A stretch of DNA of 61,147 nt, the filler included, from Perkinsus olseni (lineage: Eukaryota), in assembly GCA_013115125.1 (NCBI GenBank). It is 13 parts of 13 records of this genome, joined end to end, with 100 filler letters (N's around TTAATTAATTAA, not from the genome) between each part and the next. Parts side by side here need not be neighbours in the genome. Positions count along the whole stretch, not along the records: positions 1 to 4,674 come from JABANN010001249.1; positions 4,775 to 9,447 come from JABANN010001250.1; positions 9,548 to 14,213 come from JABANN010001251.1; positions 14,314 to 18,964 come from JABANN010001252.1; positions 19,065 to 23,698 come from JABANN010001253.1; positions 23,799 to 28,429 come from JABANN010001254.1; positions 28,530 to 33,141 come from JABANN010001255.1; positions 33,242 to 37,848 come from JABANN010001256.1; 5 more parts are not named here. One strand, 5' to 3'. Shown one piece after another: positions 2,023 through 59,647 of the stretch. Made by a program: the position numbers and the translations under genes. Each line of letters starts with the position of its first letter. The first letter of the stretch is position 1. Under the pieces are notes generated by a model. The model did not search any database. It had not been told where the DNA came from and saw only the letters and a list, made by a program, of their open reading frames with translations.

Positions 2023-2066
2023 TACGCGCAATGATTGCGCGTATTAATAGATTGCGCCGCAATCTA
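2023..2066. repeat. Double palindromic scar; inferred 8-bp duplication GCGCAATC (transposon excision footprint-like)
   Basis: tacgcgcaat-g-attgcgcgta, then ttaa, then tagattgcg-c-cgcaatcta. Both 1-nt centres are complements of the inner bases of GCGCAATC. Confidence 0.7.
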
Positions 2067-2902
2067 ACGAGTCCGTTTCGTGTCACTGCAACAACTTGTT
2101 ACTACTAATAGGCTCACAGGCATTGCGAGCGCACAAAGTTTGTGCCACAAACGGACGCGCAGCTAGGTGAGGGGCACTGTGAGAGAGGCACCAAGGATAG
2201 TCCTTGGCAAGGAGTCTTACATAGGTAGTGAGCCTTGGCGTATTCTTGATGATGCTAGACCAGAATAATCAGCATCATTTGCCCTCCAATCAGTATTCAA
2301 GACGAAATCATATATCCTATTGAAAAGTTGTGCCGATCAGTCCTGATGCACGTGTACCAAAATCGATATCTCTCTGCTATAACTACACCTTTTCCCGAGC
2401 AAATAAAATGTTTTTTCGTTTGAACCTTCTGTGTCGGTGGGCAGCCCACTGGGCTGCCAGCCCAGTGTGATGACCATTTCCGTAGTTCCTTGTGCGGATA
2501 CCCCCTTAGACATATGCAATATAGTGACAACTACCTTCATGGCTGCTACGTACCGACCTTGCTCTTTGTGCGCCTTTGCTCATGGTACGTACTACGTACG
2601 TTCGTCTTAGTGAACACGTGTGTTCCTCGCCATGCTATGGAGCATACGTTCACTCTGAATCCAAGAACTAGATCAGTTTCCCGAACTCCTCTCGAGCCCG
2701 GTTTTACCTTTCTTTGAGCCCCGTGTCAAATAGCCACACTGTGCTGAGTTATAGTGCACATATTGTTTCTGCGTACGCCGCGCGTCTCCCCCGGCATAAA
2801 TTTATAATCAACCGTGATGGCGTTAGGCGGTGAAGGAATTGAGTTGTGTACCGGTAATGCATGATATGACCTTGAAGACATTACCGCTGCGCAGGCTTGG
2901 AT

Positions 2903-4533
2903 ATGCTCCTAAGTATGGTTGCCTTACAGCACCTCATTGTCCTGCTCTACCTTCTCTCAGCAGCGGTTCTGGGACTGCCAGGCAATGCTGGCGGAACACT
3001 CAGGAAAGTCGGCAACGGCGCCTTGCATCCCATTCCTCTACAATGCCTCAATGGTGCCATGGATCCGGTGTCTCTAAGGTGATTGAGTTTCTCGGCCTCC
3101 CCTCTATCCTGAGGATGTTCTGCTCTCATCAGTGAGGAATGCATCCCGCCTTTCTTGAACCATATGCTTGTGAACGCAGCCACTCCCAGAATGAGGGACG
3201 AGCTCAGGCGACTGAAGTGAGTGGGATACTTCACCTGCTGTGGTTATCGCCTGCCCTTCAGGCTGAACGTCAGCGAATATACCTACTTCGAAGTTAATTC
3301 GTATAGTGTGGACTTCTCAGACAAAGGTAAGGCGGGCACGAGCTGTTTCAGGTCAGCTGAGCTGATTTCTCGAAGACATCACTGTATCATTGAGATGAAT
3401 TATGTCACATAGTATCCGCTCCTTGCATATCCGTCTCAGGTGTAACCTTTACGAACAAGCTTCTTGTACTTCCTCAAAATTACTCAATCGACGCCGTGAT
3501 TGACGAGCCCTACCAGAACCAGTCAGACGACGCTCCTCAGTTCAATGTTCGCATCTCAACTGGCCTACCCGTGGTTAGAGGAAGTCATATTGTGATCAAC
3601 GAGGACGCGCCTGCTGGTGAAGTCAGACTGAAGGAGATCCCAGGGAGTGAGAAGTTCAGCTTCAAAATGGATATTGATGGGTGGTTCGGAAGAAAAACTA
3701 CTCTAACACGTTCTTATTATCGCCACATCCCCCCTAAGGATGTCAAGGTCAAGGGAATACTCATACAGTATCATGGATATCGTGATACATGTGAGGCATG
3801 GGAGAAATATTCTAATACTACTCCCCTGGCCGATAAATACGGCCTGATATTGATCAATGCGTGTGGTTCTTGGTATGGTTGGTATTCAAGCTATTTGAAA
3901 TCCATAAGCGGGTGGAATGCAGGCGTTTGCTGCGTCGACAGAGACGATATCGACGATGTTAATTACACGAGGATCATCCTAGAGAGGGAGAACAAGAACA
4001 ACTTGCCAGTCTATGGTTATGGTTACAGTAATGGTGGTATGATGGTGGAATCCCTTCTGTGCCATAAGGTTATTCAAATGGCGGTCTCGGTTAATGGTGT
4101 ACTGGCTCTGAAACCTGGCTTGAGTGGGGCTTTCAAGACCTGTGACGATATCTACAATAATGCCACCATCGGCCCGAAGCCTACGGTGCCTAGGGTGGCC
4201 AGCATACACTGCCTCGATGATGAGTTGGTTCCCTACAATGGTTCTATCTACGGGAAGAAATATAAAAAGTACTTCAGTTCCGACCTTTTCCCGAGGACCA
4301 ACAGAGATATGGGGCGATGGGCCAGCAGAATTGGATGTGAAAGGAAGGTAACGAATACAACAAGGACCAAGCCGTGGCTAAAACTGAAGGAGTGGAAATG
4401 TCCTGGAGAAGAGAGAGTGGTGTCTATCAAGAGGAATAACTGCAGCTTTCATGGTTCAGCCCATCAAGTTGTTAGAACTCAATATCTCGACCCCGCTGAA
4501 TGGGCCATCAAATTCTTTCTTGGTCTCCCCTGA
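2903..4533 (+). CDS. Secreted alpha/beta-hydrolase (LpqC / PHB-depolymerase-like esterase), 4 exons, ~472 aa
   Basis: Hand-built exons 2903-3078, 3133-3216, 3262-3326 and 3440-4533 join in frame with GT-AG introns. Hydrophobic signal peptide (LIVLLYLLSAAVLG). Motifs YHG, WNAGVCC, DIDDVNY, nucleophile elbow GYSNGG, IHCLDDELVP and a C-terminal His. Confidence 0.8.
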
Positions 4534-4674
4534 AAATTTCCTATTAAAACAGCTGGATAACTGCTACACGTTCGTCCGGCACTTCGCATGTTTCAACTTT
4601 TTTAGTAATTGCATCATCCATGACGATTACGCTAATGACGCCTAGCTTGCTCCAGAAGCAGGATGATGATCGTG

Positions 4675-4774
4675 NNNNNNNNNNNNNNNNNNNNNNNNNN
4701 NNNNNNNNNNNNNNNNNNTTAATTAATTAANNNNNNNNNNNNNNNNNNNNNNNNNNNNNNNNNNNNNNNNNNNN
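4675..4774. other. Artificial contig spacer (Ns flanking TTAATTAATTAA). Others at 9448, 14214, 18965, 23699, 28430, 33142, 37849, 42524, 47198, 51850 and 56500
   Basis: Identical 100-bp linker with stops in all six frames. Intervening pieces shrink monotonically from 4673 to 4550 bp. Confidence 0.97.
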
Positions 4775-4949
4775 CTCCATCGCAGCCCAATATCTCCGGA
4801 TCTTGTGTTACACTTCTAGCAGCTCAGCTGCGAGTGTTGCTAGATCAGCTTGTCCACGGCCGTATTGTATTGGTGATAGTTGTGTGAATTGTGGTATAAG
4901 AGTGCGTAATAGTGTGTGGGTAATAGTGCGGCCTCCATTTCTAGTAGAT

Positions 4950-8473: not shown

Positions 8474-9447
8474 TTAACTGGGCAAAGCAAAAGACGCACA
8501 ATTTCGGCGTTGGGATGCACCAGGTGGTCGAATCGTCTTACTCATTGACAATAGAGCATGGACCTCGCTCCTTTTCTTTTTTCTGGTTGTACCACTTCCT
8601 GACGCCTGCGTTGAAGTAGTAGCCGAGAGCTCGCTAATAGCACGAACCCGAACGCGTCTTTGTATAGTCGCCCAAAGACGCACTGCGCTGCAGGCCTGCC
8701 GAGATACCAGCGAAGTATCATTCCTCGTAAGGATCGAGATGCTCGTGACTACCCTTGCTCTGATCGTCAGGAGGCATCAGAGTCTGACTTTTCTCGGGTG
8801 CCTCCCGACAAGTCGAGTGCTGAGGCGCTTCTTCCAGGCAGACATCAGAGACCTACGGAAGCCAAATCGAGCGGCCTGTATCACGATAACAGGCAAGCGG
8901 TGATTATTGCCTTCTGTGGCGACATCGGAGCAGCGGCTGGAAGTGCCTCAGAACGAGTCGGAGGCTTAGCACTCTCTTCCTCCGTGCAGGAGGTAGCGTT
9001 TGAAACTACAATCCACAAGTTCACAATACAAGGTAGGCTACCTTAGGTAGCTCTAGTAGCTGCGTACTTCCAACCTTAGACCCTCCCGACGACCCCATTT
9101 CAACACATTTTGCTTCGGAATCTTGTCCAGGAGCTTGAGGTTCTTCAGCAGGGTCCTAACAGAAATAGTGCATGGTAGGCAACGATCAGAACCCCCGGCA
9201 GTGACACAGAAGATAGATGGCAAGCGATCAACTTGTCTAGTTAACCCATAGTACCTCCAGTCTTTCTGCTTGCAGCGGTACTGTATCCGTATGAAACCGC
9301 GATAAGCTGGATTTCCGAGATTTTGGCATCGTGGCCCTTCCTGCTTCTCGCTGTTTCCCGTCGGCAAGCTTCCACTTCTTGGTGCCGTCTGAGGTCGTTG
9401 CTTCGAGTGGAACTTCACTCTGAGTAACTGGATAGCACTGAATAGCC
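8474..9447 (-). CDS. Possible intron-containing hypothetical gene fragment
   Basis: Open stretches (…HTDTVPLQAERLE / DPAEEPQAPGQDSEAK…) separated by GT…AG segments. No recognisable domain; truncated by spacer. Confidence 0.25.
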
Positions 9448-9718
9448 NNNNNNNNNNNNNNNNNNNNNNNNNNNNNNNNNNNNNNNNNNNNTTAATTAAT
9501 TAANNNNNNNNNNNNNNNNNNNNNNNNNNNNNNNNNNNNNNNNNNNNGGTTTAAACAAGTAGAAAAACAACAGGGAACAAGGAGCCCTCATTACAAGTAA
9601 AACGACAAAATAACTACGAATACAGGAGTAATAGGAGGGCCTCGTGAAAGGGAACGTTCACGGAAAGGTGATAAAAGAGAGCATTTAGTCTGGTGTCTCA
9701 GAAGGCGACCCGCTCGTA

Positions 9719-9988
9719 CGTCTCGTTTCCCAGCCGATCTTGAAATCTCGAAAGAACTGGTGGAAGGGAATCCACCAGCCCGTTGCCTCACTGCGCGCGT
9801 GATAATATACAAAAATAAGTACACGGAGGCCACCAGAGGGCTGATAAATGGTTAACTCGCACCGCATACAGCTTCCCAACGGACCCTGAATGTTAGTTTG
9901 CTTAGCAGCAAACTCACCGTCTTACAACAGCCGCGCTCAGAACTTCAGCCTACGGTGTCGGAAAATAGCTGCGCTCGAGATCGAAACG
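9719..9988. repeat. Conserved non-coding block, copy 1 (copy 2 at 12304-12526)
   Basis: Shared tcttgaaatctcg…gaactggtg…agggaatccacc…cggaggccac…gggctgat.aatggttaa…cgcaccgcat…gccgcgctcagaac…ggtgtcggaa. Confidence 0.85.
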
Positions 9989-10787: not shown

Positions 10788-12128
10788 TCAAGAAGGCAAA
10801 ACGGCATGTAGTTTGATGTCGATGGTGGAGGGAGTCGCACTCTCACCATCCGTATCAACACTCGAAAATGTCTTGTTCAACCTCAGCCACCATCCACCTC
10901 CTGTGGCCCGACAGATTCGGACATATTCCAGCGACCACTGTTGAGGTAGAAGCGACGCTTCGAGTAGCGGAAGATCAGCAGAATGTTCTTCACCAGAGTA
11001 ATTGAGATAGAGACAGTCTTCATGGCTATCAGCCGTTACCTGAGGGAAGTACACTGGCCACTCATACGCACATAGGTCGACCCTCAGCCCAACCCAACGT
11101 TGATGTGTCTCGGTGTCGGTCCGGACGTTCACAGTAATCTTCCAGACGTTATCGAGACCGGTATCAAGTGTCTCATATTCGTCATCGGGTATAATGGGCG
11201 GAAATACCCGATTAGCTGCTTCGCCATAATAAGGACCTCCGTGCTCCCCTTCCCACTCCTCAATCTCTGTTCCAGCACGGAAGGCTACTCCCGGCTGTAA
11301 ATGGACGCTCATCTCGAAGGTCGAACCTCCTCCACCAGTTTCATCATCACTCCTTCTCAAGTAACCACCTTCCGGTAGTGGCATTCCAGAACCGGGTGAT
11401 TCATACGACGACTTGGACGAACCATGGGAGGCGTCCGAACCTTCCTCTCTCTTCGCGAGTTTCCGCGGTCCTCCTCCAGCCTGGAAGTGAGAGGAACGTT
11501 TCCTCGATTTCTCTGGCACGTCATCGGCCCTGTCTCCGCGAGAGCCCTCCGATAGGGCTATTCGAAAGCCGTACGTAGTAGATTTCCAGCGCCCGCCATT
11601 CTTCGTATCAAACTTTCTCCCGATACCAACGATTATTCCGAACTCGGTTAGGCAGAATATCAGCTGGGAAGCTATTCGTGACGGCGTTACCAGGCCTAGG
11701 CGTCTGTAGAAATGAAAAATAAAATTATATGCTGCGCCCTTGGGCTCCACGTGGAAGCAATTTGGAGACAGTCCAACTCGCAGCGAACCGAATTGTCTCA
11801 ACGTTCTCACATTGTCATAACTGTACCACACCAGAGCCGCTTTCTCTGAACCACCAATCGAATCCCGAATGGCAGATGACTCGATAGATAGAACCTCCGC
11901 ATTAAAGCTCGCCAGCTGTCCCTCTTCACCATTAGTAACCACCATCTCGAAGCTGACCAGGCGTGGAAGCTCCGGACAGATTGTACCATTCTGTTCAACC
12001 GCTTTGTACGTCCCTGCAGGAAGACTGTCGGACGTGACGAATCCTTTCGGCGACTTTCCTCTTCCCCCGCCGGATCCAGTCACACGTTCTGACAAGAGCG
12101 AATACACCAAGAGCAGAATTGTGTTCAT
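10788..12128 (-). CDS. Intronless secreted hypothetical protein, 446 aa
   Basis: Long ATG-initiated ORF with N-terminal hydrophobic segment (MNTILLLVYSLL). Two globular parts separated by a G/S/charged linker. Confidence 0.8.
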   Translation of the reverse strand: MNTILLLVYSLLSERVTGSGGGRGKSPKGFVTSDSLPAGTYKAVEQNGTICPELPRLVSFEMVVTNGEEGQLASFNAEVLSIESSAIRDSIGGSEKAALVWYSYDNVRTLRQFGSLRVGLSPNCFHVEPKGAAYNFIFHFYRRLGLVTPSRIASQLIFCLTEFGIIVGIGRKFDTKNGGRWKSTTYGFRIALSEGSRGDRADDVPEKSRKRSSHFQAGGGPRKLAKREEGSDASHGSSKSSYESPGSGMPLPEGGYLRRSDDETGGGGSTFEMSVHLQPGVAFRAGTEIEEWEGEHGGPYYGEAANRVFPPIIPDDEYETLDTGLDNVWKITVNVRTDTETHQRWVGLRVDLCAYEWPVYFPQVTADSHEDCLYLNYSGEEHSADLPLLEASLLPQQWSLEYVRICRATGGGWWLRLNKTFSSVDTDGESATPSTIDIKLHAVLPS

Positions 12129-12303
12129 AGAATGTCGATTGAAAATGACAACTCAACTGTGAAGAGACTACTCCGATATTATCACGACACTTGCAAAGAG
12201 TCCTCAGCGCTCCTGTGAGATATCACCTCACGAAGATGTCATCAAACGGTTCCGGAGGGGACTAGGAGACTTAGAATGATCGAGTACGAAGGATGCGCCG
12301 ATG

Positions 12304-12526
12304 CGTCTCGTCTCCCACTCAATCTTGAAATCTCGGGAGAACTGGTGAAAGGGAATCCACCAACCGGAAGCCCTACTGCACGCGTAATAAAATACGCGGA
12401 GGCCACTGAAGGGCTGATGAATGGTTAATCCGCACCGCATGCAGAAGTCGTTAGACTCACAGTTTTACGACGGCCGCGCTCAGAACGTTAGTCTGAGGTG
12501 TCGGAAGAAAACTTCGCTCGAAACGC
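12304..12526. repeat. Conserved non-coding block, copy 2, upstream of the 12128 ATG
   Basis: Aligns by eye with 9719-9988. Confidence 0.85.
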
Positions 12527-14087: not shown

Positions 14088-14122
14088 GAATAGGTGACTT
14101 GGAGGAAGAGGAAAAGCGTAGT

Positions 14123-14192
14123 ACTGGACGCCGTAACGGAAGACTCTTCCGTTACGGCGTCCAGTCGCGATCTCTTCCGGGAAGAGATCGCG
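14123..14192. repeat. Two abutting perfect palindromes (21-bp and 13-bp arms); inferred 8-bp duplication CGGAAGAG
   Basis: actggacgccgtaacggaaga-c-tcttccgttacggcgtccagt followed directly by cgcgatctcttcc-g-ggaagagatcgcg. Confidence 0.85.
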
Positions 14193-14313
14193 CCTGGACT
14201 GTTCGGAAGCCGANNNNNNNNNNNNNNNNNNNNNNNNNNNNNNNNNNNNNNNNNNNNTTAATTAATTAANNNNNNNNNNNNNNNNNNNNNNNNNNNNNNN
14301 NNNNNNNNNNNNN

Positions 14314-15416: not shown

Positions 15417-16865
15417 CTACGTCCCCTGCCGCGATGGTTTCACCCTCAGTAAAGCCTGCGGCCTTCCTTGCACAAGTAGTCGCTCGGTCTCTGGTAAGGA
15501 AGATCGTACTTGTTGTGCCGGAGCGAAGAGAAGACGTCCATGAGGTGGAAGGTCGTGACCAAGAACCAGCGTAGCACCATTAGATCGTAGAAAATCATAA
15601 CCTAGAATGCGAGGCGGTAGGGCTCCCAAGTCTGCAATTAGGAACTGTTGAGTGAAGCTTCTTGACGGGCCATCCACAAAATAGAAGGATAACGAAATAT
15701 ACGACGATGTGTGAACGAATGAATTTGAATTAGAGAATAAGTCAACTTTAGATGTCTTCTTGACCAAGCTAGACAGTCTATGCTTAGTGATAATACTACT
15801 ATTCACAAATGAGCACTCGTGTCTATCAAGCAATGTAGCTTGAGATGATCAGTATTGAAATCAGAGCGACGGTGCGATCGAGTCTGTCGCCGCGTCTCCG
15901 TTTGGGGGCAGATCGGATCTGCCAGATCCTTAGTATTGGCAGCTTGAATATGCTCTCTATCATCGGCTAACTTCTTGATGGCATTGTATTCGGACGTCCA
16001 ATGAGTATTAACTCGGTGGTAGGTACACCATTTCTTCTGGCCAGGGGGTCGGTGCTTGAACTTACCATAGCCAGTAGTTGGTGCTCGCCCATAACGGTGA
16101 AGACCTTGTCCATTGCCACCACCATATCTTATCAAGGCTGCCACTTCTTCCCGTGGTGCAGCAATCTCTTCAAATGGATCTTCATCAGCCGATGGTGCTG
16201 AAGTACCGAGGGCATTCTCACTGGCGGGAGAATCATAGGGTGGGTGGCCAGCTCGATACAAGCTTGTCGGGCTACTTCGTCGACAGTAGTAAATCGCATA
16301 ACCCCCAAATGACTTGCTATGTGCTCGGGGAGAGCGTCCATAATTTTCAATATCATATCCCTGTGATGATAAGCAACAGTATTGAGCTTGACGAACTCGT
16401 CGAATTTCGGATACTCCTCCTCCTCTTCCACATTCGGTTGGGTGAAATGGGCTTCGAAGTATAGCCTGTTCAAATCATAAATCAAAGTATCCTAGGACTC
16501 ACCTGGTCCAAGATGATGGTCACGGAATCCAGCAGCAGCTTGATAGTATCAAGTTATTAAGCCCCCATATCAAGTTGATATGGGGGCTTAATAAGATGAC
16601 ACAGCAGGGCCAGGCGAACGGTGTTATCGGAACTACGGTAGTTCTCGTCGAAGGAAAGATAAGCTTGGTGAGCTCGACCAGTTAAGCAGGTAGACAATTT
16701 CCGAGATGCTTTTGATTCATCCCATTCGTTGGTACGAACACGTAATCCATAACGTGTCAGTAGATTGACAATGGACTCATCGGGGCGTCCTTGGAATGGG
16801 GGAGGTACACTTGTGTGAGAACCTGATGTTAAAGTCGATACCTTTTCAGTGTCGGGCACAGTCAT
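15417..16865 (-). mobile_element. Degenerate Ty3/Gypsy gag-protease region
   Basis: Gag-like PPPFQGRPDES…W…LTGRAH, knuckle remnant WCTYHRVNTH, protease LIDTSA and ILGYDFL. Interrupted by stops and frameshifts. Confidence 0.75.
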
Positions 16866-17223: not shown

Positions 17224-17356
17224 TCTTCGACTAAGTTAGTCGAAGTCGGACTAGTCGGAAGTTAGTCGGACTAACTGGTGGTGACCACCAGGTGGTCTTC
17301 GACTACCGCTGTGATGAGTAATAGTTGATTTGAAGCGACGCAAGTCCTTCAATCAA

Positions 17357-17433
17357 CTTTGTTCCGAACAAAGAGGAACAACTTTTGATACTGCATGAGG
17401 GCCGAACAAATTGTTCGGCCCTCATGCAGTATC
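17357..17433. repeat. Double palindromic scar; inferred 8-bp duplication TTTGTTCG
   Basis: ctttgttc-c-gaacaaag, 13-nt filler, then gatactgcatgagggccgaacaa-a-ttgttcggccctcatgcagtatc (23-bp arms). Confidence 0.8.
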
Positions 17434-22551: not shown

Positions 22552-23502
22552 GGGGGCCTATTTCATAGGACGCTTTTTCTTAGGATCCTAAGAGGTTAGG
22601 ACGCGATTTTGGGCTTAAGCCCTTTCACAAGGCCCATTTCCTTACGTTAGGGTAGGACGTTAGGACACTAGGACTTTTAAAGTTAGGAAATCCTCGATAA
22701 GGACGTTAGGATGGGTGGTTAGGTCGAAGCTATTTCACAAGACACATTTCCTAAGGTTAGGACGCGCCACTAAAGTACCTCCCGAGGTACTTTATAGAGC
22801 ATCCTAACCTGAAAAGTGGTATTCGATTCGCGAATCGCTCCGCTAAAAGCTCCCGGGTTCGAATCCTGCTGTTCTCCATTCTACATCTTTTTTCGACTTC
22901 GCTATTTTTCGTGATGCTTTTCTTTCGACTTCGCGAATTTTTCGAAATGCTTCAATAATCTATACTCTGGTTTTGCAGCTTAGTTTTGCAAACATACCAT
23001 CCGGGAAGTTCTCCGATGTTGAAGTTGACCCTCAACTTCAACATCGGAGGGCTTATCAAAAAAGTTTTGATTCAAAACCTCAACTGTTGAAGTATTGATA
23101 CGCCTCTGTGACGTATTTTGACGGCACCGGGTGAGAGCTACGTGACAACCTCATTGCGGTCCGCAATGCGCAATCCGCAATTTGCGGATAGGAGGGATAT
23201 ATTGACCACCCAAATTATCGTGATTCTTACAGGGAACCAAGATGGTCTGACGGTAGTATGTCAGGCAGACATCTGGGTGAACGTGGGTTCGATCCCTGTA
23301 ATGCTCATTTTCGCCGAAAATTGTGCTCAAAATGTCTTTCAAGGATGTCCTTATCCTCAGGTGAGGACGTCTTTAAGTTTAGGATCCTAAGGTTAAGTGA
23401 GGACAACCTTATGAAACAGCTTGTCCTTACTTAAGGATTCCTAAGGTTAGGATCCTAAACTTAAAGGCATCCTTACTCAGGAAATCCTATGAAATAGGCC
23501 CC
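22552..23502. mobile_element. Non-autonomous TIR element (MITE-like), ~950 bp
   Basis: 18-bp perfect TIR GGGGCCTATTTCATAGGA / TCCTATGAAATAGGCCCC. (C)GGGTC is duplicated on both flanks. Subterminal arrays of TTAGGA/TCCTAA. No convincing ORF. Confidence 0.85.
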
Positions 23503-24188
23503 GGGTCTATGGCGTGCGCAGGTCTGGCGCTCTGGATATCCTATGCGACGGTTCCGGAAGACCGGCCGAGGAAAAGTCCGAGTTGATGAGGCTGAGTCAA
23601 TGATACTGTGATGAGGTGCATACTAACGGGCTGTTCAATAGACAAGCGCGAGTTCGTTCCCAGGAACGTTCTTGAAGAACGTTGTTCAAGAACGTTCCNN
23701 NNNNNNNNNNNNNNNNNNNNNNNNNNNNNNNNNNNNNNNNNNTTAATTAATTAANNNNNNNNNNNNNNNNNNNNNNNNNNNNNNNNNNNNNNNNNNNNCC
23801 CAATCCTCTCCCGGGCGAGCGCGAACGTTCTTTAGAAAATGGCCACATTCTTTAGAAATATGGTTTTTCCCCCTCTCGTAGCAGGTAGTGACTGAACTAT
23901 TATAATTTGATGAATACAATTGAGTAATCCGATATGAGTTGTCGAATTCAGCACCACTGATAACCCGCACGTAGTTTGCACTAAGTGCAAATTTCTGTAT
24001 TTCCGGCGGGACACTGTATATGCGAATACCCCGGCAGAATTATGTCTCTTGATGGTGACGAGTATTCGACATGGAGTAATGGAGAGACGGGGTGTTCGAT
24101 AGACCTTTCTCGGAACTCAAGGCATTTCGATTTCAAACTGCGTGGGTTCTTTTAGGTGAAATTGTAATCCTTCTCTTTCCGTCGAGGA

Positions 24189-25370
24189 ATGTGGAGGGCC
24201 TCCATCTCGATGATGCTCGCCGTTGCCCTCCATATCTTGTGCCAAGCCTCAGAAGTGATATCAGATGCCCCAGCCAAGACTGTGACAATGCCAGTCGAAG
24301 AAGGCTACATCAACGTCACCATCGACGGTCAAGAAGTTGAACTACTTGTAGACAGCAACGCCTGGGGCATCGAATTGATAGACGGCCGATGGTACGAGGC
24401 AAAGTACGGCAAGGGCGCTTGTGATGAGCCTCACGCCGGCTGCTACTTTTGCAAAGAAGAATCCCCTTGCATTTTCAAGAAAGAGTTGGTAAGAAAATCG
24501 AGCTTCGCCGATGGCACATGGATTAAAGGCATCGAACGCACTGGCTCCCTCGAATTGGGTGGTCACGAGACTACCAACTTCACCTTTACGGTATTCAGGA
24601 TCATCGAATGGGTTGGAAGCCGGCCACACGGGTTTTTCGGCCTGGCAGGGCTGTCTCGAACGTCGAACCTCTTTCAACCATGGCCTGGCCAGGAGGGTTT
24701 GCTAGATGCTCTTGTGCGCCACAACGTCATCGGGCGTCAGTCGTACACCGTCCGAACGGACACGACACAGGTTTCTGAATACGTTACCGGGCAACTGACG
24801 CTCGGTGGCACTGTGGAGAAGTCAAAGAATACCAAGTACACTTTCCCGCAGTTTACTTATGACCCACGATTTTACAGAGCCATAACTTCAGTCTGGGTGT
24901 CATCGCTGAAGTTGTTCGATCCGAGGATGAATCTTACGACTAAAGAGCGACCGGTGGGCTTGCACTCTAGCTCGTTCTTGGCTACTATGGACACGGGCGC
25001 GAACGGCGTGTACCTGCCTTACGAGGGGCTTCTCGAGGATATCGAGAGGGAGCTGAAGAAGGAGATGAAGGGGAAAGGATACAGAGAGAAGCAGATAGGG
25101 GAAGTCTGGCGGCGAGACGAGTGGGGGGTTGTGTATGTCAAAGAGGAAGCCTTCGACAGTCTGCCGGTGCTGGGATTCCAACTGGGCGAGGGCGACTATT
25201 CTATACCGATCAAAATACATCCGATGCATTACTGTGCCGACACTCTGCAGGGCGAATATTTGATTTTCGTGCAGCAAACTAACTACAGCGTTCTGGGTAC
25301 ACCATTCTTCAGGGCATACAGTGTACATGTTGATTTCACCAGCAAAGAGATAGCCCTGCTTGAGAATTAA
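24189..25370 (+). CDS. Secreted pepsin-like (A1) aspartyl protease homolog, 393 aa
   Basis: Signal peptide; INVTIDGQEVELLVDSNA (N-lobe motif), GFFGLA, MDTGANG (C-lobe motif), VLGTPFFRAYSVHVD. Intronless. Confidence 0.9.
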   Translation: MWRASISMMLAVALHILCQASEVISDAPAKTVTMPVEEGYINVTIDGQEVELLVDSNAWGIELIDGRWYEAKYGKGACDEPHAGCYFCKEESPCIFKKELVRKSSFADGTWIKGIERTGSLELGGHETTNFTFTVFRIIEWVGSRPHGFFGLAGLSRTSNLFQPWPGQEGLLDALVRHNVIGRQSYTVRTDTTQVSEYVTGQLTLGGTVEKSKNTKYTFPQFTYDPRFYRAITSVWVSSLKLFDPRMNLTTKERPVGLHSSSFLATMDTGANGVYLPYEGLLEDIERELKKEMKGKGYREKQIGEVWRRDEWGVVYVKEEAFDSLPVLGFQLGEGDYSIPIKIHPMHYCADTLQGEYLIFVQQTNYSVLGTPFFRAYSVHVDFTSKEIALLEN

Positions 25371-36825: not shown

Positions 36826-37948
36826 GCCTGCACTTAACATAAAGCTGCATGTTAACGCATCGTTTTGTTGCGCGGCGCAACTTGCGCCCCATACCGTAAT
36901 CTCGCCAACTCAACCGAGTGACCGCCCTGTGGTCTGTTTCCTCCTTTAGTGCTCACTTCAGGCCTACCCATGCCGAGAACGTTGCCCTCGAGACTGTTCT
37001 AAGAACAGTGTTCACTCAATTTCCCTCACCACGAGCGGTATGCAGCCATGCATGAGCTTTCAGTGGCCTCGCCGATCCGCCCTATGAGAAATCGTCGATC
37101 GCTGGAGCATTAGGATCTGCCTTAGGATCTTGTTAGGATCTGAGCTTGAGTCGAATCGGAGCTGTCAAGGGATCAGCCGCCTCTTGCGAGCTTTTCTCGA
37201 GCCAGCAGCTCTCTCAGGTACTTCCTGGGGCATCGCTGAATGGCTCATGGTGGCTCACGGAAACAAAATCAGTTCACCGCGAAGATATGACTCGCAAGGC
37301 AGTAAGTCGCGAGGAGGTGCGTCAGCGTCCAAAGGGGCTGAGCAGGAACTGGACACGGCTGGGCAGAAAGGAACGGAACGGGTATTTACCTGTGGGAATA
37401 CCCATCTCGCATCGGCTCGACGGGAAATTACCGTCGACATGGTTTGGCGAGGGCAACGTCTGTTCGACTGACCTTGCCCTAGCAAGGTTGGACTGTCGAC
37501 TGTCGACTGTCGACGTGTGCAACGACGTATCACTAAACTCGAGATAGTTAGATTCTCACTGTTCGGCCAGACCTCGTTACAAGAACGCAACTCCTAGAAG
37601 ACGCCATTAGTCAAAGACGCTAAGATCAAAGACCAACTACCACTAAATCAGGATGACGACTGGATGGACTACTTCTACTAAAAATCTGGTGACGAATATG
37701 AAACTGGCCATAGCTCGGCCCGAGCAGAAAGCTAGCTAGGTTATTGTACGCTAGCGTAGTTGGCACAACAAGATGAACAGGTAGACAGGTGATGCGCAGC
37801 CCTTCATGGGTCAGCCACCAAACCATGGCCACATCCAGAATGAGGATTNNNNNNNNNNNNNNNNNNNNNNNNNNNNNNNNNNNNNNNNNNNNTTAATTAA
37901 TTAANNNNNNNNNNNNNNNNNNNNNNNNNNNNNNNNNNNNNNNNNNNN

Positions 37949-39809: not shown

Positions 39810-41500
39810 TTTTTACGCTCTTCCTACTTTCTACAACGAGTTACCTCGCTGTACCCTTGCAATCGCGTTGGTAAATCGCGACAGTATGTTCCCTCTACGA
39901 TCTTTCCGGAAATCGGAAGGAGGCTACCCAGGTAGACAAATTTATCCACTTCTCCGATGTCAGAGCCGTCTATCTTCACACGCAGATTGGAATCACCCAA
40001 TCCTTCAGATAGGGTCATACATATTGTCGTAGGTAAGAACACTTCCATGCCGAACCTATCCAGAGCTGGCAAGAGCTTATCGAGGTTACGTTGGAGGATA
40101 GAGTCATCGTCAGCCAATGAAACGATATCGTCCGCGCACAGGAGACATGAGAGGTCCACGGATTCTCTCCTGCCTTCGCTTGCGCAAAGTATGCTCAGGC
40201 TGATGTCCAGTTTGGCATCTCTGATCACCATATCTATGAAGATAATGAACAGAACGGAAGCTATTCAGCACCCCTGTCAAGTTCTCATATCTACCGTAGA
40301 TAATCTACAGGAATATGGTCAGAAATTTTCTTCTGAGGGTGGACCTGGGCAGCAGTATGGTGTATTGATTCGATAGCTGAGATCAGCTTTTCATCAGTGA
40401 TGAAAAGCTAGCCGGTTGTGATGAATCATCACATCTGGCTAGCCTGAGAGCTCTCCAGATCGCAGAACAGTGCACTTTGTCGAACGCTGCTTTCAAACTC
40501 AGGAAAACAGCGGACTGCCTGCGGCCATTCCGGTTGCAGATTTCCGTACAACGGCGCAGTACATGTAATGCATCCAAAGTGCCCTTTGCTGGTAAGAAGC
40601 TAAACTGCTCTTCTCCAACAAAATTCTCTGCTAGAGGTTTCAACCTCCGCCCCAAAGCCCCGGAATAAAGCTTGCCCATATGATCGAGCAGTTTTATACT
40701 TCTGTAGTTGCCTGCTCCCTTACTGTCGTCTTTCTTGAAGCAACGGAAGATAATCGAGTGTTCCAGAACTCTGGGAATACTCTCCGGCCTACTCCACCAC
40801 TCATGGCACAAGCGGCACAAGATCCTTAGAGTGTGGTCACCACCTCATTCGCTCCAGGAGCTTTATCATTACTCGTGGAGCAGAAAGAGTCCTGCACCTG
40901 GTCCAAGGTGATATCTTCCCCTGCTTTGCGCTCTGTTGGCAGGTCAGGTGGCTCCAGGGCAGGTAGAATGCAAGTTTTCAAGCCAATAGTTGCTTGAAAT
41001 GGCTTGCAAATTCCTGTGGGGAAAGGATATCATGACGCCTGCGTATCAGTGTGAAGCCTGTTTTCAATTCATTGATGAGGCGTCTAACGTCCTCAGCGTG
41101 CTGAGCTTCCGCGTTCTCAATCTGAGAACACTCCAGCTCTGTGAAATCGGCTTCAGCTTTTTTCACCGCTACCGCCGCTTTGCTGCGAGCTTCGCCATAT
41201 GAGTTGGAAGCTAAGGCCCAGAGGAACAAGACTCCCAGGACAAGATTTGACTCCGCCCGGCTTACGCGTGAAATCCACGCGCTTCAGTTTGCTCAAGATC
41301 TGGGACGCTATTGCCGCTGAGGGCTGTTTGGATTCTTCATCGGGTGGTTCGTATCGAACCCGGATCCGCCGTGTCCGTGTCATCGTTTGGACATTCCCGA
41401 TCAGATTTACCTCGCCGAAGTGTACCTGCCTGCTCTCTCGGTCTAGAGAGTAGCCATTGAGGACTATGCTCTCGCCATGTACCGTCGGCCGAGTAGTCCT
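39810..41500 (-). mobile_element. Degenerate non-LTR (LINE) reverse transcriptase
   Basis: NYRSIKLL…EEQFSF…FLSLKAAFDKV, QGC…LF, LLCADDIV and FVYLGS, spread over several broken frames. Confidence 0.9.
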
Positions 41501-51849: not shown

Positions 51850-51949
51850 NNNNNNNNNNNNNNNNNNNNNNNNNNNNNNNNNNNNNNNNNNNNTTAATTA
51901 ATTAANNNNNNNNNNNNNNNNNNNNNNNNNNNNNNNNNNNNNNNNNNNN

Positions 51950-52020
51950 TCGTTTCGGTCTCGGGTCCGAGAACGAGCGAGAACCGAGAATCTCGTTTGA
52001 CCGAGTCCCGGTGCGCAGGT
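51950..52020 (-). mobile_element. Foreign repeat-rich sequence interrupting the Gypsy integrase (possible DNA-element end)
   Basis: Integrase similarity stops after ALYQLF. The sequence continues AGACCTGCGCACCGG… with repeated CTCGG/CGAG motifs. Confidence 0.45.
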
Positions 52021-55000
52021 CTTATTTTAAATAAGAAGAGCTGGTACAGTGCTTGTCCTACATCCTTCCACGAGTGTTGCCGTAGAGGAACAACGTGAGC
52101 CCACTTCGTAAAATAGTCTTGTACCACCAGCAGCGTCGAAATTCCATCCACATTTTCGGGCACCGATAACAAGTCCACTCCAATAGTTTCCCACGGACGA
52201 CCAACCGGAATAGGCTTCAAAGGTGCCGGTGGTGGTGAAGGCCTCTTAGCGTTAATACACTGCATGCAACCAGCCAGATGCTGCTCGATATCCTGAGCCA
52301 TACCTGGCCAATACGCAAAGCCCTGTACCTTGTCCAACATACGTTGAAAACCACCGACATGGTCCTCGTCCTCGTGGAATCGCACAAGCAGATCCTGACG
52401 CAAGGACTGTGGTACCACCGGGACCCATCGAACGTCAGTATACGGAGAAGGCTTCATTTCTCTCACGAGTATACCATCTGAGAGTCCCAAGGTACGCCAA
52501 ACACGCTTGAACGGCACGAAGCTAGAGTCCTTCAACTCATCTCTACGTAGCGGTGTAGGGTCCACCACGCGTAAGGAAACTCGACTCAATACCGGGCAAG
52601 CTGCCTGCGCAGTCCGTAACTCCTCGAGGGTATTAGCCGGGTGCAGGGTCAGAGCTCCAGCCACTGGTAGAGGTCGACCACAAGGAACGTCATCGGCAGG
52701 TACCTTACGATCTCCATCATAGCCCACCAGCCCACCATTATCCAGAGAGGTAGGAACAATAGCCCCCAAAGCTTTAGTAGGCTTCGCTAACAGAGTTTCT
52801 TCTTCCCTCTCTCGCTGCCGAATACGCGATAACGCATCCGCGCGCACGTCGGTAGAGCCCGGGATATACCTGACCGTAAATTTGTACTGCTGTAGAGCCA
52901 AACACCAGCGGTGCAGCTTCGCAGACGTAGCCGTCTGTATCCACTGCAACGGCCTATGGTCCGAGTAGATGGTCACCTCTAGCGGGTAGCCCAAATAGAA
53001 GTGCCGGAAACGATCTAAGCACTTCATTAAGGCATACGCTTCTTTCTCGTAGGCCGGCCAATTTAACTGAGAGCCCGTCAGTGTCTGACTAAAGAACATC
53101 AGAGGCCTTCCGTCCTGTTCTATGACACCTCCGATCGCAAAATCCGAAGCGTCGCAAACAATCTGGAAGGGTCTCGTGAAGTCTGGATAGTCCAAACTAG
53201 GCAACCCAGTTAACGCCTGCTTGAGATCACTGAAGGCTTGTTCATGATCTTGAGCCCAAAGTTCCACCACCATCTTTTCCGACTTAGCGGTATCCTTTAC
53301 CAGTTGGTGTAGGGGTCGTGCCCGATCCGAGAAATGAGGGATAAAGTGTCGGTAATAACCAGCCAAGCCCAAAAACCCACGTAGCTCCGTACACGTAGAA
53401 AGCGTCGGCCAGTCCACAATAGCCCGGACTTTCTCTGGGTCAGGACGCATTCCCCCAGAATCGAACGTATGGCCCAGATAATGTACCGAAGACATACCGA
53501 AACTGCACTTCTCACCCGAGAGCGTGAGTCCTGCAGCCCGTAGCGCGTCGAAGACCTGACGTAAGTGGTCTAAGTGCTCTTCCACCGACTTAGAGAAGAC
53601 TAAGATATCATCCAAATAAACTCTAACGAAGGGTAAGTGACCCACGATAAAGTCCATCAACCGTTGGAACCCAGCGGGTGCATTACACAGCCCGAAAGGC
53701 ATCCTAGTCCACTCGTATAAGGGAAACCCAGGCCCTGGGCAAAATGCCGTCTTGTGTCGGTCCACAGGCATCTGCCAATACCCTGACCTTAAGTTCAAAG
53801 TAGAAAAGACCTTTGCTCCAGCCAAATGCTCTTGGACGTCGTCCGGTCTAGGGATGGGATATGCATCGATAACCGATACTTGATTAAGCCGACGATAATC
53901 AATACACATCCTCACCGCACCATTCTTCTTTGGAACGTAGACACAAGGAAACTTGTAAGCAGACGTCGACCGTTGGATAATCTCATCCTTTTCCATGGTT
54001 TCTAAAGTCCGCGTGATCTCATCCCTCCACTTATGAGGAATAGGCCGCGGCTTCTCCGCTATGGGACGAGAGTCTGTCACCGGAATAGAGTGCTCCATTG
54101 CCGTTGAGAGTCCCGGTCGGTTGACGAACAAGTCCACGAACTCCGTGCATAACGAATGATACTTGTCACCATCAGCATCCTTATCGGGTAGCGTAGGCAG
54201 CGTAGTTGACTCATCATGGAAGTCGGGAACAGCGAACTCGAGAGCCCTTGCCAAGTCGTCCTCTTGGAGACCGTCGTCACCAGCACCATTTGGAGGCCAG
54301 TTCGTAGGAGGAGTCGGGGTGGACGAGGTGTCTTGTTCTGGTCTGAAGCGAAGTGGCCGAGTCGTATGGCCCTCGCCTTCGCGAGGAGAGGAAGGGGACG
54401 AAGAAGAAGAAGAATCATCACCTGGCAACAGGGCACCCAACACCGGTTTCCCCGCATGATGGTCCAAGTCCGACGTAGCTATATCCCAAATTCCGACTGG
54501 GACTCTATACGAAGACCTAGCCCCTTTTCCTTCCCCCATCAAGACAGACACAGATACACTCGGTGACTCTAGGGGATCCACCTCGGGGGTAGTCTGTACA
54601 GCCACAGACACTCCCGTGGAACCCTTCACCGATCCATCCTTTTTCAAGTCCTTGTCAAAATCTACATCACGTCGGCCCTTAGCTTTTAGTGAAGCCGCGG
54701 CGCCGAGCAACGGTATAGACCCGAAACAAGGATGTACTAGAGGAGCCGAACAAGAAAGCGGTGAGCCCTCAAATCTCAGAGGAACTCCTGAAGAATATCG
54801 AGGCTCCATCCCGAAATTCCTCATAAAATCATGTCCAATGACAATCTTGTGAGCCAGGTTACTCACTACAAGTACGACGACTTCAAAAACAGCTGAGTCA
54901 GTCGACGGATCATGAACGATTGAGGGTGAATCCCACAATTTCAACCGTACCCGACTGGCTCCTAAAACGGTAAAAGGTTTCTCATCAATAGTAACAAGTC

Positions 55001-55226
55001 CCATAGAAGGACACGGAACAATAGTAGCATCACTAGGCAAAGTCTGACGATCAACAATGGTATAACAACTGCCCGTATCAATAAAAGCTTTCGTCGCCGA
55101 AGACTCATTGCTCGGAGTTGACAAAATCGCGTGTAAAAACAGTCCAACCTCAAGACCAAAAGTCCTGAGGCTGATAGCCGGGTCCGGCGGCTGAGGACCC
55201 CTCATCAGCCGCCGGTCTAGTTTCCC
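52021..55226 (-). CDS. pol: Ty3/Gypsy Pol (protease-RT-RNase H-integrase, 3' truncated)
   Basis: FIDTGS, RMCIDYRRLN, MPFGL, YLDD, CDASD, EKEAYA, YSDHRPL, ADALSR, H…H…YWPGM…CMQC and GVDL, in Gypsy domain order. Confidence 0.96.
55184..55226 (-). promoter_or_regulatory. -1 programmed ribosomal frameshift signal
   Basis: Slippery G GGA AAC just before the gag TAG, then the stem CCGGCGGCTGA/TCAGCCGCCGG. Pol lies in the -1 frame and is open through the site. Confidence 0.85.
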
Positions 55227-56383
55227 GACTTCGGGGCCTCCTCCTTGGAGGAACCCCTCTGGCTCTTCAACAATGACTTAGGGCATTGTCTAGCCATATG
55301 ACCACCGTCACCACAGAGATAACAACCCTTATCAAACTGCTTCAAAGGACAATTCCTGGTGATGTGTCCACTCATACATATACCACACTTGACCGGTCCT
55401 CTAAATTTCGGACGGCCGGAAGGAGCCTTAGACGCCAACTCCTTCTCCAAGGCGGCAACCTTCTCCTTAAGCTTGACGGTAAGGTCCGGGGTGGAGGGCG
55501 GTGGTTGCGCCCCAGAAGTGACAGCCGCCATAACCTTGGCCAACTTGTTGTCCAAACGGTCCTCGAACCTCTGTAAAGTGGAAGCCGGTAACGCAGAAGC
55601 CCCTTGACCAGAGTCCGTGTAGTCGCTGACAATGTCCACCATCTCCTCAATACTCGTCGGCTTAGTCTTCTTCAACTCAGCTTTGGCCGCCAGTGGTGCC
55701 ACAGAGATGAGCTTGTCCAAAACCATCTGGTCCACAGCCGCAGTAGGCAACCGCCTCTCAGCCGGAAGCTTCCGGTTATAGTCCTCCAAGACCCGTCGCG
55801 CTCGCGCGAGGAAGACCGACAGGTTGGTTTCACCAGTCCACTTCAAGGCGTAGAACTTTTCTAAAGACGCATCCGTTGTAGTCCGCGAGAAGACATGCGA
55901 CAAAATCCGACAGTCCTTATCAAAGTCCTCCTTCGAAGCGTACTGGTCCCAGCTCTCGTAGAAATCGTCGGACAAATACATACCCAACCTTAAGGCCTTG
56001 GTCGCGGCGTTCCACCCGGCCGCATTGGCAGTATTCTCATAACGCCTTAACCAAGCCCGGAAGTCCGTGTCGCCATTATAACGAATAGACACCCTAACGT
56101 TCTCTTTCACCGTCGAAGCCGTGGTCCCGTCCCTCGGGCTAGGAGTGGCTACCCCGTCCGAGCCTCGATTGGCCGATGAAGACGAGGTAGATGCCTTCAA
56201 GCGCTTAACCTCCTCCTCCGCCTGCTCGTACAGAGTATTTAGATTCCGAGCTTGTTCCACAGCCCGGTTAACCATAATAGTCACAACTTCCTCCTCAAGG
56301 TCCTCGCCGGCGACCGCTTCGCGCACTTCCGCTTCCACCTTGGCCAAGTCCAACTTCTCAAAGGTAGAACCAGGATTAGCCAT
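55217..56383 (-). CDS. gag: Ty3/Gypsy Gag, 388 aa
   Basis: YNGDTDFRAWLRRYE capsid-like segment; zinc knuckles CGICMSGHITRNC and CYLCGDGGHMARQC. Confidence 0.93.
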   Translation of the reverse strand: MANPGSTFEKLDLAKVEAEVREAVAGEDLEEEVVTIMVNRAVEQARNLNTLYEQAEEEVKRLKASTSSSSANRGSDGVATPSPRDGTTASTVKENVRVSIRYNGDTDFRAWLRRYENTANAAGWNAATKALRLGMYLSDDFYESWDQYASKEDFDKDCRILSHVFSRTTTDASLEKFYALKWTGETNLSVFLARARRVLEDYNRKLPAERRLPTAAVDQMVLDKLISVAPLAAKAELKKTKPTSIEEMVDIVSDYTDSGQGASALPASTLQRFEDRLDNKLAKVMAAVTSGAQPPPSTPDLTVKLKEKVAALEKELASKAPSGRPKFRGPVKCGICMSGHITRNCPLKQFDKGCYLCGDGGHMARQCPKSLLKSQRGSSKEEAPKSGN

Positions 56384-57328: not shown

Positions 57329-58201
57329 TTACAGAGGGTGTCTGTAAAGGCGATCGTATGGGTACTCGCCGAAGGCAAACAGAATATCAGGAGTGGCAAA
57401 CCTCACCGTCTCGAAATCCTGGAGTGCGTAGGAGTTTCGCCATAAAGGACAAGCAACTTCAAAACTATGTAAGTGTTCCCATGCAGTATCACCACTTGGT
57501 GTAGGTGTCAGCAAGTAGGGCTCACCAGGACCCTTCGCTACCAGTTGATAGGGCTTCCATTCAGTCTCTCCTGCAGGGTATCCATCTCCGGCTCTGCAAC
57601 CAAGCTTCACTTGAACGAATCCATCGGCTTGAATATAGTAGTACAGCCTGAGGCTTGATACTGAAGAGTTGGTCGCGTACCTTCCTGGATTCAACGGGAG
57701 CCACCGCCGCTTGAGGACCTTGAGATCATCGTGGAGATTGGTTTCTACGTTGCCGTTTCCAACGACATCGAATTCCATAAAGTCCCAGTCAGAGATGTAG
57801 ACACCGGGGCACACAGCGCGAGCATTGTCGAGCCACGTCTTACGGCGGACGTGCCCGGGCGGAAACTCGAGGAGTTGGTCGTATTTGGGATCGTCTTCAA
57901 ACTTCTGAAGTGGGAACCAACCATCTCGGTATGGACCTCTACCACAGTCTATCTCAAACATACATCTACCGTCCTTGGTGACATTTAAGATCATCGTGAC
58001 CTTCTTAGACCGGTAGACGAAGTCTCCGTAATCTATCTGATATCGACCCTCTGATGGCCGGCTAGTGGGCTTCCCCCTAGATGGCGTAGTCGGGGGAGCA
58101 CGCGTCGTCCTCTTGGAAGGTGGAACGTGGCGCTCATTTCCGCCGCCGCCAAGGATCAGAGAGGATAAGCAGGAAAACACAACGATAAATGGGAGACGCA
58201 T
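57329..58201 (-). CDS. Secreted hypothetical protein, 290 aa (paralog of 59648-60466)
   Basis: Signal peptide, P/T/R-rich linker, shared motifs YG.FVY.SK, WLPL..GRY, LGC.A and VRFATPDI…YDRL.RHP. Confidence 0.88.
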   Translation of the reverse strand: MRLPFIVVFSCLSSLILGGGGNERHVPPSKRTTRAPPTTPSRGKPTSRPSEGRYQIDYGDFVYRSKKVTMILNVTKDGRCMFEIDCGRGPYRDGWFPLQKFEDDPKYDQLLEFPPGHVRRKTWLDNARAVCPGVYISDWDFMEFDVVGNGNVETNLHDDLKVLKRRWLPLNPGRYATNSSVSSLRLYYYIQADGFVQVKLGCRAGDGYPAGETEWKPYQLVAKGPGEPYLLTPTPSGDTAWEHLHSFEVACPLWRNSYALQDFETVRFATPDILFAFGEYPYDRLYRHPL

Positions 58202-59647
58202 AATAGAATTGTAAAAACCTACGTGCAGAGAGAGTGATGAACAGGATGACTAGTACGAAGAACGAGGCTACTGTGAGCAACTTCAGGGGCCAACCGGCTA
58301 CTGTTCAACAGGGACTGTCGCCCCTCCATGGAGTGGCCTCCATCGAATGCCGGTAGCTAGCCTCACTTGCTAAGACCGGAGCATTGCTGGTGACGTCTTA
58401 GCCTACCCACTCTTGGCCATACGCCTGCATCACGGGAACCGATCGTGACGACGACGAAGGGCGGCTGTCTACTGTTCACCAAAGACCACACTGTTGGAGC
58501 AATCCCTCGTGTTGATGGGACGACTGTGAAAGGACCCCAGTCGACTAACCGTGAGTATATCACAAAGACTCCGTGGATCGTCCACGCATATCATGATTCT
58601 GCAATCCCAAAGATGGACACGTGACGTCCAGGACAAGGGAGCTGCTCCGCGGTGACGTAATCCGGTTGCTGCCGAGTGCACTCAGGCTTCTCCACATGTC
58701 AGGTCACGGAGCTAGCAAGCCGGTGGTCGGGCACTGCACCACGACTGAGGTTTGATTCTGTTAGAAGGGCATGAGGAGGTCTGGGGCTAAGTTTCGGCGA
58801 AACTGTTTCGCATCTTTTCTCTCCAAGACAGACGTACGGCCGAAACTCGCATCAATAGCACAAGTGTCATCCTTTCCTACCCCTCTTCAAGGTGGTAGTC
58901 GGGACACTCTCCGCGTCAGCTTTTGATTCAGATTCGACTGCACGACGACGTCTCCGGGAGCGTCGAAGTTCTATCGTGGTACAGACTGTAAATCTAGAAT
59001 CATCCGAACAAGAGCTCTAGTCTTGAGTTGGAAGTGGAGTGGAGTATCCGTCGTCGCGGAAGTGGCACAATCACCGAAGAAGTTCTCAGATGATGGACAT
59101 AACGTCTGGCGCGTTATGAACACTACCCGTTATACACCACGTGTGCACAACTCGTTCCGAGTTTAACTCGTTATGAACTTTCCTTCAGGCTATAACGCAT
59201 TTTGTTATGTGCTAAACACCAAGGTTTTATATAACTGTTATCGTGGCGGCTGTCACTCGCCACGCACTGCATTGTGATATTGTCTACTGCTAGGCTTGAA
59301 TGATCTATCATTCAAGTGTAAATGATTCATTGAGATTGGATAAGCGACCGAGGTTGACTTCTTCCATATGTGCGTATTGTGTTATCTGGATTACTATAGC
59401 GGAGGCGAAACTCCAATGCAGTCTACATCAGTCAGCGGTGACTCATTCAGGGACGTCGCTGAAATCATCAATGGCGGATGGGAACAACGTTATCGCGTGG
59501 TATAATACTGGTGACTCAAGACTTTCCCTATGAGCGGCCGTCGGGGAGATTATACGACTGCCGGCTTAGCACGGTTGGCGGTAACGATAGCCGAAAGCTA
59601 TTGAAAAACCCCCAGTAGAAAGTCGTTCAAAATAAGATGTAAACGCT

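Follow-up and report, generated by a model that had tools for sequence, protein, structure and literature searches.

Palindromic 22-nucleotide scars in a Perkinsus olseni assembly resemble excision footprints of a hAT-type transposon

Transposons of the hAT type duplicate 8 bp of target DNA, as passages of two studies describe (PMC5499845, PMC3499496), and the footprints left by Ac/Ds elements are presented, in passages of a third, as palindromic insertions centered on the complement of the element-adjacent base, with arms in yeast of up to 20 nucleotides (nt) and most joints formed via microhomology (PMC5873905). Genome-wide footprint surveys exist, one example being a comparison in rice. Excision footprints are usually too short and too varied to be recognized without an outgroup, and their share of natural mutation is therefore hard to measure. 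Here we analyze 61,147 bases of the Perkinsus olseni assembly GCA_013115125.1 (hereafter the window), in which a sequence-only reading had pointed out a family of palindromic scars that obey a single 8-base rule. We consider it probable, at roughly 0.7, that a cut-and-paste DNA transposon of hAT-type chemistry left these scars as footprints at its donor sites in the Perkinsus genome. The window comprises 13 joined contigs of 4.55 to 4.67 kb, sorted largest first, and the joints (4675-4774, 9448-9547, etc.) each consist of 44 N, TTAATTAATTAA and another 44 N.

The 8-base rule and the anatomy of the scars

The window was scanned for the general form T[1..k-1]+rc(T)+T[2..k], in which T is a word of length k and rc(T) its reverse complement. 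At k=8 this form is T[1-7]+revcomp(T)+T[2-8], a sequence of 22 nt that we call the compact scar. Exact matches numbered 233 at k=3, 26 at k=4, 2 at k=5, 1 at k=6, 1 at k=7, 26 at k=8, 1 at k=9 and none at k=10 to 13. Words as short as those of k=3 and k=4 reach such counts by chance, and a sharp peak at k=8, as the sequence-only reading had anticipated, stands above both its neighbors and the shuffled background. When mismatches were allowed at k=8, the window held 26 exact, 6 one-mismatch and 14 two-mismatch sites, compared with 0, 1 and 8, respectively, in 20 mononucleotide shuffles summed; 100 first-order Markov simulations produced no site with even the 6-mer core. The 20 copies carrying one or two mismatches, against ~0.45 expected by chance, show that scars persist, age and decay within the genome, and the ratio of transitions to transversions among the substitutions in decayed scars (17:16) is not decisive. 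The 22-nt grammar also predicts an excess of direct repeats at a spacing of 14, and direct 6-mer repeats do peak there, with 41 observed against 10.3 expected. An excess at spacing 13 was rejected as a scar signal, the repeats concerned not being palindromic.

All ten compact sites named in the earlier reading equal the predicted 22-mer to the letter. Exact compact scars, to which no strand is assigned, occur on 8 of the 13 contigs, where scars on 7 had been reported, and their density of about 1 per 2.3 kb corrects upward an estimate of about 1 scar per 4 kb. Nine lie on contig 8 (33560-33581, 33784-33805, 34775-34796, 34877-34898, 35985-36006, 36146-36167, 36349-36370, 36488-36509 and 36867-36888), five on contig 5 (19509-19530, 21302-21323, 21727-21748, 21906-21927 and 22285-22306), four on contig 4 (15908-15929, 16885-16906, 17276-17297 and 17463-17484), three on contig 1 (250-271, 1914-1935 and 2131-2152) and two on contig 10 (44252-44273 and 44532-44553), while contigs 2, 7 and 13 carry one each (9030-9051, 29761-29782 and 58790-58811). 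The sole k=9 case, at 2441-2465, is an exact 9-mer version of 25 nt with centers 8 nt apart, and it accounts for a near-match previously noted at 2440. Another near-match, at 1129, is, by our reading, a compact scar minus one base.

In the extended scars, two palindromes with arms of 7 to 23 nt either abut or are separated by a filler of 4 to 14 nt, again by our reading. The four that had been proposed (at 2023, 14123, 17357 and 23153) were confirmed, and three were added, one of which, at 16539, had been listed as a near-match and is an extended form with one mismatch. The scar at 2023-2066 has arms of 10 and 9 nt that share one common 8-mer across a 4-nt filler, with 0 mismatches; that at 14123-14192 has abutting palindromes with arms of 21 and 13 nt and the identical 8-mer on both flanks; and that at 16539-16594 has abutting palindromes with arms of 7 and 20 nt whose 8-mers differ at one base. 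At 17225-17276, arms of 10 and 8 nt are separated by a 14-nt filler that repeats neighboring letters, and the compact scar 17276-17297 directly adjoins it. The remaining three have arms of 8 and 23 nt with a 13-nt filler (17357-17433), of 8 and 8 nt with a 4-nt filler (23152-23189) and of 12 and 8 nt with a 7-nt filler (40385-40433). The filler at 17246-17259 repeats letters of the adjoining hairpin center and looks like the templated insertion of polymerase-theta-type end joining.

Palindromes of odd length, in which a lone central base separates an arm from its reverse complement, are in large excess in the window, with 65 of arm 7, 19 of arm 8, 9 of arm 9, 4 of arm 10 and isolated examples reaching arm 23, compared with 31 of arm 7 and 4 of arm 8 in ten shuffles summed. 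Even palindromes are at background (4 of arm 7, 1 of arm 8 and 1 of arm 10 in the window; 31, 5, 1, 0 and 2 of arms 7, 8, 9, 10 and 11, respectively, in ten shuffles summed), and the even-type triple T+rc(T)+T has no match in the window for k=5 to 9. The centers follow a rule of their own: of the 29 core-matching sites, 26 have at both centers the complement of the duplication base that is missing, and 0 have the original base at both. The 105 odd palindromes group into 63 clusters, or about 1 per kb, where chance would supply ~3.5 palindromes. Among the 59 pairs of odd palindromes that lie 7 to 90 nt apart, 33 point to one common 8-mer from either side, namely, 26 compact scars, 6 extended scars with 0 mismatches and 1 extended scar with one mismatch. 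The remaining 26 pairs disagree at 3 to 7 of the 8 positions, as unrelated neighbors should. Another 39 odd palindromes stand alone, lacking any partner of arm 7 or longer, again compared with a chance expectation of ~3.5, and we read these as one-sided or decayed scars. Long palindromes also lie at, or just a few bases from, two contig ends, namely, at 14159-14199, on a contig that ends at 14213, and at 23663-23698, the last bases of contig 5; long excision palindromes may in part explain the fragmentation of this short-read assembly.

The 26 target 8-mers are biased in composition, with C at position 8 in 18 and G at position 1 in 11. Among the 52 words obtained by symmetrizing the targets, G occupies position 1 in 29 and T in 3, position 2 holds A in 3 and T in 16, and positions 4 and 5 show no bias. 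The excess of G at position 1 corresponds to a z of ~5 by normal approximation. This palindromic bias suggests that the sites were chosen by an enzyme.

Independent contigs, an unscarred paralogue and genomic setting

Parts of contig 8 are present in 13 public sequencing runs from six studies, with at least half of the sampled words found in six runs, and four runs were compared with contig 8. Over 34549-37326, a contig from run X1 (2,778 nt, depth 159) is free of differences and gaps, and the same holds over 34549-36945 for a contig (2,397 nt, depth 315) from run X2 of a different study. Both span seven scars without change (34775-34796, 34877-34898, 35985-36006, 36146-36167, 36349-36370, 36488-36509 and 36867-36888), so that the scars recur in deep contigs of two studies. 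Considering that X1 or X2 is possibly the assembly's own source run, we counted this agreement as one independent confirmation. The scars are not an assembly artifact.

The expectation that scarred loci should collapse to a single 8-mer was borne out in a paralogous copy. The segment 36280-36420 has a diverged duplicate at 36657-36783, and the two align through the scar at 36349-36370 with one gap of exactly 14 columns; the duplicate, which lacks the 14 inserted bases, keeps a single 8-mer with two bases different. Judged from this alignment, the paralogue represents the empty-site configuration. Two other comparisons were rejected: the paralogue pair 9719-9978 and 12304-12521, in which the gaps, of 12 and 30 nt, are not scars, and an integrase remnant near the scar at 34775-34796, in which homology stops before the scar. 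In short contigs of the divergent strain X7, lengths differ from those of the window by +28, +13, +25, -4, -16 and -14 over stretches of 240 to 750 bases. Some of these differences are multiples of 14, which suggests, as a hint from lengths alone, that scars are present or absent between strains. Stretches without cover in X7 or X10 were not counted as evidence. Runs X10 to X13, which are labeled as a second organism, contain exact low-depth parts of contig 8 (depth 7 to 13, 0 differences), a result to be expected should those samples be hosts of this parasite or mixtures that include it.

A search of metagenomes with the gypsy polymerase encoded in the window (see below) returned a sole relative, at 25% identity, and its contig served as a negative control. 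This unrelated, eukaryote-like contig of 17.8 kb holds 0 scars, and its odd palindromes are as numerous as its even ones (6 each). A metagenome search for the flank-gap-flank pattern around the scar at 34877-34898 returned 0 stretches.

The scars sit in noncoding and dead-transposon DNA, as is expected if selection removes 14-base insertions from genes. No scar lies in the gypsy element of contig 12 or in the aspartyl protease gene, and the absence of scars from the former suggests that this element postdates most scars or remains under selection. When 14 bases were removed per scar, the mean longest reading frame rose from 91.8 to 97.2 amino acids, compared with 97.9 for control deletions; the sole large change, from 57 to 198 amino acids, was at scar 34775. 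Scar removal thus lengthens frames no more than control deletions do, which is consistent with the earlier remark that intact genes are spared.

Among the annotated features, contig 12 carries an apparently intact Ty3/gypsy element on the minus strand, in which Pfam scans identified a polymerase with reverse transcriptase, RNase H and integrase zinc-binding domains (51894-55205, reaching the spacer) and a gag with a zinc knuckle (55217-56383), the element as a whole occupying 51894-56383. The same scans identified a second integrase at 26506-28395 on the minus strand and a eukaryotic aspartyl protease at 24189-25370 on the plus strand; 6 of the first 10 open reading frames (ORFs) scanned matched no Pfam family. 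The protease ORF has 15 relatives in a large protein collection, all 15 from Perkinsus olseni and the best 94% identical, and a second ORF searched gave a single match, a P. olseni protein at 94% identity, so that the DNA is eukaryotic and its source a Perkinsus near P. olseni. A decayed retroelement integrase remnant at 34111-34704 (minus strand) is 87% identical over 200 amino acids to a P. olseni integrase-core protein and contains an in-frame stop; the compact scar at 34775-34796 lies ~70 nt past its aligned end. Direct repeats that are ~69% identical (9719-9978 and 12304-12521) bracket a 454-amino-acid ORF at 10791-12152 on the minus strand, for which there was no Pfam family and no convincing neighbor in the Atlas (scores of at most 0.85); repeats and ORF together could represent an old long-terminal-repeat element or else the duplicated flank of a gene. 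Contig 8 has at its two ends (33289-33401 and 37669-37848) parts of one multicopy repeat of at least 1.2 kb, and in run X10 one contig, at depth 468, bridges both ends with 944 letters between them. No inverted termini were found in this repeat. Rfam and tRNA scans of the window returned no matches, G+C content ranges from 45 to 55% across it, and scaffold gaps of 95 to 98 N each lie inside three contigs, at 30221, 44047 and 48753.

Excision model and alternative explanations

The scheme proposed here is meant to join the features that were observed directly, which are the grammar, the restriction to 8 bases, the odd-only palindromes, the center rule, the 14-base gain relative to the paralogue, the presence in deep contigs and the decayed copies. 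An element would insert and duplicate an 8-bp target T, giving X-T-element-T-Y. Upon excision, the flanks would be nicked one base inside the duplication and sealed as hairpins, a step suggested by the anatomy of the scars together with published work on Ac/Ds and Hermes. The hairpin tip would be the complement (c) of the duplication base adjoining the element, so that the left hairpin would read X-T[1-7]-c(T8)-rc(T[1-7])-rc(X), with its mirror image on the right. Host nucleases would then open the hairpins beyond the tip, at least 8 bases away, to leave 3' tails, that of the left end beginning with rc(T) and that of the right end, on the other strand, with T. These tails would pair perfectly over 8 bases and anneal, and once flaps were trimmed and gaps filled, the outcome would be the compact scar, X-T[1-7]-rc(T)-T[2-8]-Y, with a net gain of 14 bases. 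Direct joining of the ends, whether or not filler was added, would instead yield extended scars, whose arms measure 7 to 23 bases.

We derived the tail-annealing part of this scheme on paper from the grammar. It would account for the fixed gain of 14 bases and, the tails being 3', for centers that are always complements; it would also account for the dominance of the compact form when both hairpins open at a distance of at least 8 bases from their tips, and for extended forms as the outcome of direct joining. Since two full duplex copies of T are needed, the scheme requires a prior insertion duplication, and a simple staggered break would not suffice. The original assignment to hAT-type excision footprints is supported as regards the mechanism: the peak at k=8, the odd-only palindromes, the center rule, the common 8-mer of the longer forms, the 14-base gap of the paralogue and the recurrence in deep contigs all agree with the hairpin-footprint reading. 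As regards the transposon family, hAT is a candidate whose published target consensus is not matched. A more specific version would have a hAT-like family, still active, whose hairpins are opened at least 8 bases off the tip and repaired near-deterministically by 8-mer annealing akin to microhomology-mediated joining, write about one 14-base palindromic insertion per 1 to 2 kb of noncoding DNA; this version is tentative, and we rate its chances as slightly short of even.

Several observations weigh against a hAT-type element. None of 20 window ORFs scanned against Pfam has a hAT-type domain, and this 61-kb window of short contigs, which the transposase and filled-site searches covered, yielded no element that combines terminal inverted repeats with an 8-bp duplication. 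The best candidate for a resident element is weak (11 of 14 end bases match), and a stricter scan of the window found 0, compared with 0 to 3 in 10 shuffles; this negative result is itself a weak one because the contigs measure 4.6 kb and probably end at repeats. The targets are also without the central TA of Buster-type elements and are enriched for neither T in position 2 (16 of 52 when symmetrized) nor A in position 7. The target consensus of the Ac/hobo/Hermes type is nTnnnnAn, and the outer G and C are the sole resemblance of the targets here to the Hermes/hobo consensus. In addition, one deterministic product makes up 26 of the 33 two-sided scars, whereas the hAT footprints reported in the passages cited here are varied, and allelic empty sites in strain X7 are suggested by length differences alone.

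The mismatch with the published hAT consensus would favor a family of another kind, Mutator-like, Merlin-like or undescribed, that acts by the same mechanism in hairpinning its flanks or duplicating 8 bp. Muta1 makes duplications of 8 or 9 bp as well as hairpins in flanking DNA, but passages of the same study give its excision in yeast as precise in >90% of events, with footprints rare (PMC5499845), and in the window a 9-mer fits only 1 site while an 8-mer fits 26. Merlin elements, too, make duplications of 8 to 9 bp, and P. marinus has two preserved Merlin-related ORFs along with remnants; however, the passages of that study do not document hairpin chemistry for Merlin, and its authors, in the same passages, found neither inverted repeats nor duplications around the P. 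marinus copies (PMC8101967). The center rule, for its part, agrees with the one-base offset of Ac/Ds in passages of PMC5873905. We rate a non-hAT family as unlikely. A host process that involves no mobile element, in which a domesticated transposase or other nuclease makes 8-nt staggered breaks and seals hairpins, would suit the finding of ~60 scars but no element or filled site in 61 kb, as well as the unusual uniformity of the products. Against it, high-copy elements are expected at contig ends or to be absent from an assembly of 4.6-kb contigs. Moreover, the material in each scar derives from the 8-mer in two complete duplex copies, since either hairpin, left or right, needs both strands of T, and by reasoning from the grammar this requires a prior duplication of T, which is supplied by insertion and not by a simple break. 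We regard such a host process as distinctly improbable.

Template switches are known to create inverted duplications, and replication template switching or slippage could yield short ones without a double-strand break; the filler at 17246-17259, which repeats neighboring letters, would fit such an origin. Template switching needs priming homology, however, and random 8-mers have none. Nor does it explain the fixed length of 8, the constant complement at the center or the pairs of 7- to 23-nt palindromes with a common 8-mer, and we disfavor it as very improbable. The fragmentation of the assembly into contigs of ~4.6 kb, together with the possibility that one of the compared runs is its source, might be taken to indicate an artifact of sequencing, amplification or assembly. 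Such an artifact is hard to reconcile with contigs at depths of 159 and 315 from two studies that are identical over seven scars, with 20 mutated copies where ~0.45 are expected, with the target-site bias, with a paralogue that lacks the insertion and with an unrelated 17.8-kb metagenome contig that is free of scars and in which odd palindromes are no more frequent than even ones (6 of each), and we give it next to no credence.

Comparison with known excision systems

The long, rule-bound repair outcome described here allows each event to be read from one genome, and so provides a direct tally of past insert-and-excise traffic, at about 1 scar per kb in this sample. It offers a natural confirmation, at many sites, of the one-base-offset hairpin chemistry known from reporters and a readout of hairpin opening and end joining in an alveolate parasite. 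In practical terms, scars can be used as presence/absence markers for typing Perkinsus strains, they can mislead aligners and gene finders, and the longer palindromes probably account for some contig breaks in short-read assemblies. If a still-active hAT-like family is indeed responsible, excision scars would be a leading source of insertions and deletions, strain polymorphism and assembly breaks, and would constitute a natural genome-wide record of double-strand-break repair.

A P-element footprint consists of an 8-bp duplication with leftover bases of the element ends rather than flank-derived palindromes. This type was rejected, as the inserts here are everywhere the reverse complement of the local 8-mer, with no common element-derived sequence. 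The first nick of Hermes is said to fall one base inside the flank (Zhou and colleagues, 2004), and the fungal hAT-like element Ascot-1 of Ascobolus reportedly left long, nonrandom palindromic footprints at a single reporter locus (Colot and colleagues, 1998). RAG cuts exactly at the border and RAG/Transib duplications are 5 bp, which would yield even palindromes; a footprint of this type was likewise rejected, with even palindromes at background, 2 matches at k=5 and 0 even triples at k=5 to 9. The scars are nonetheless similar to the P nucleotides of RAG V(D)J joining and Transib in that sealed hairpins opened off-center give palindromic additions (cited in passages of PMC5499845).

Muta1, a Mutator-like element of Aedes aegypti, is similar in its duplication of 8 or 9 bp and its flank hairpins and differs, in the passages of PMC5499845, in that its excision is mostly precise and footprints are rare; 9-mers are nearly absent here (1 versus 26). 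Mutator-type duplications more generally measure 8 to 10 bp, typically 9, and the scars here are sharply 8 with the single 9-mer case. Hermes and TcBuster, as passages of PMC3499496 describe them, share the 8-bp duplication, the flank hairpin and the complementary extra bases, although the TcBuster target consensus nnnTAnnn is not seen here. There is also a likeness to Ac/Ds in plants, budding yeast and Candida albicans, for which passages of two studies describe P-nucleotide palindromes and an 8-bp duplication minus its inner base (PMC5873905; PMC1978519). Unlike the 28 footprint types recorded in those passages among 128 Candida revertants, with arms mostly of 0 to 3 nt, a single compact form, in which the whole 8-mer serves as the microhomology, makes up 26 of 33 two-sided scars here. 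Also, in contrast to the footprints of Ac/Ds reporters, the scars are fixed in a natural genome at about 1 per 1 to 2 kb. We found no published description of such scars in Perkinsus or of a dominant 22-nt compact footprint in a literature search whose scope was main texts. The chemistry is a known one; what is new, within the reach of that search, is the near-deterministic product, its density of about 1 per kb and the host.

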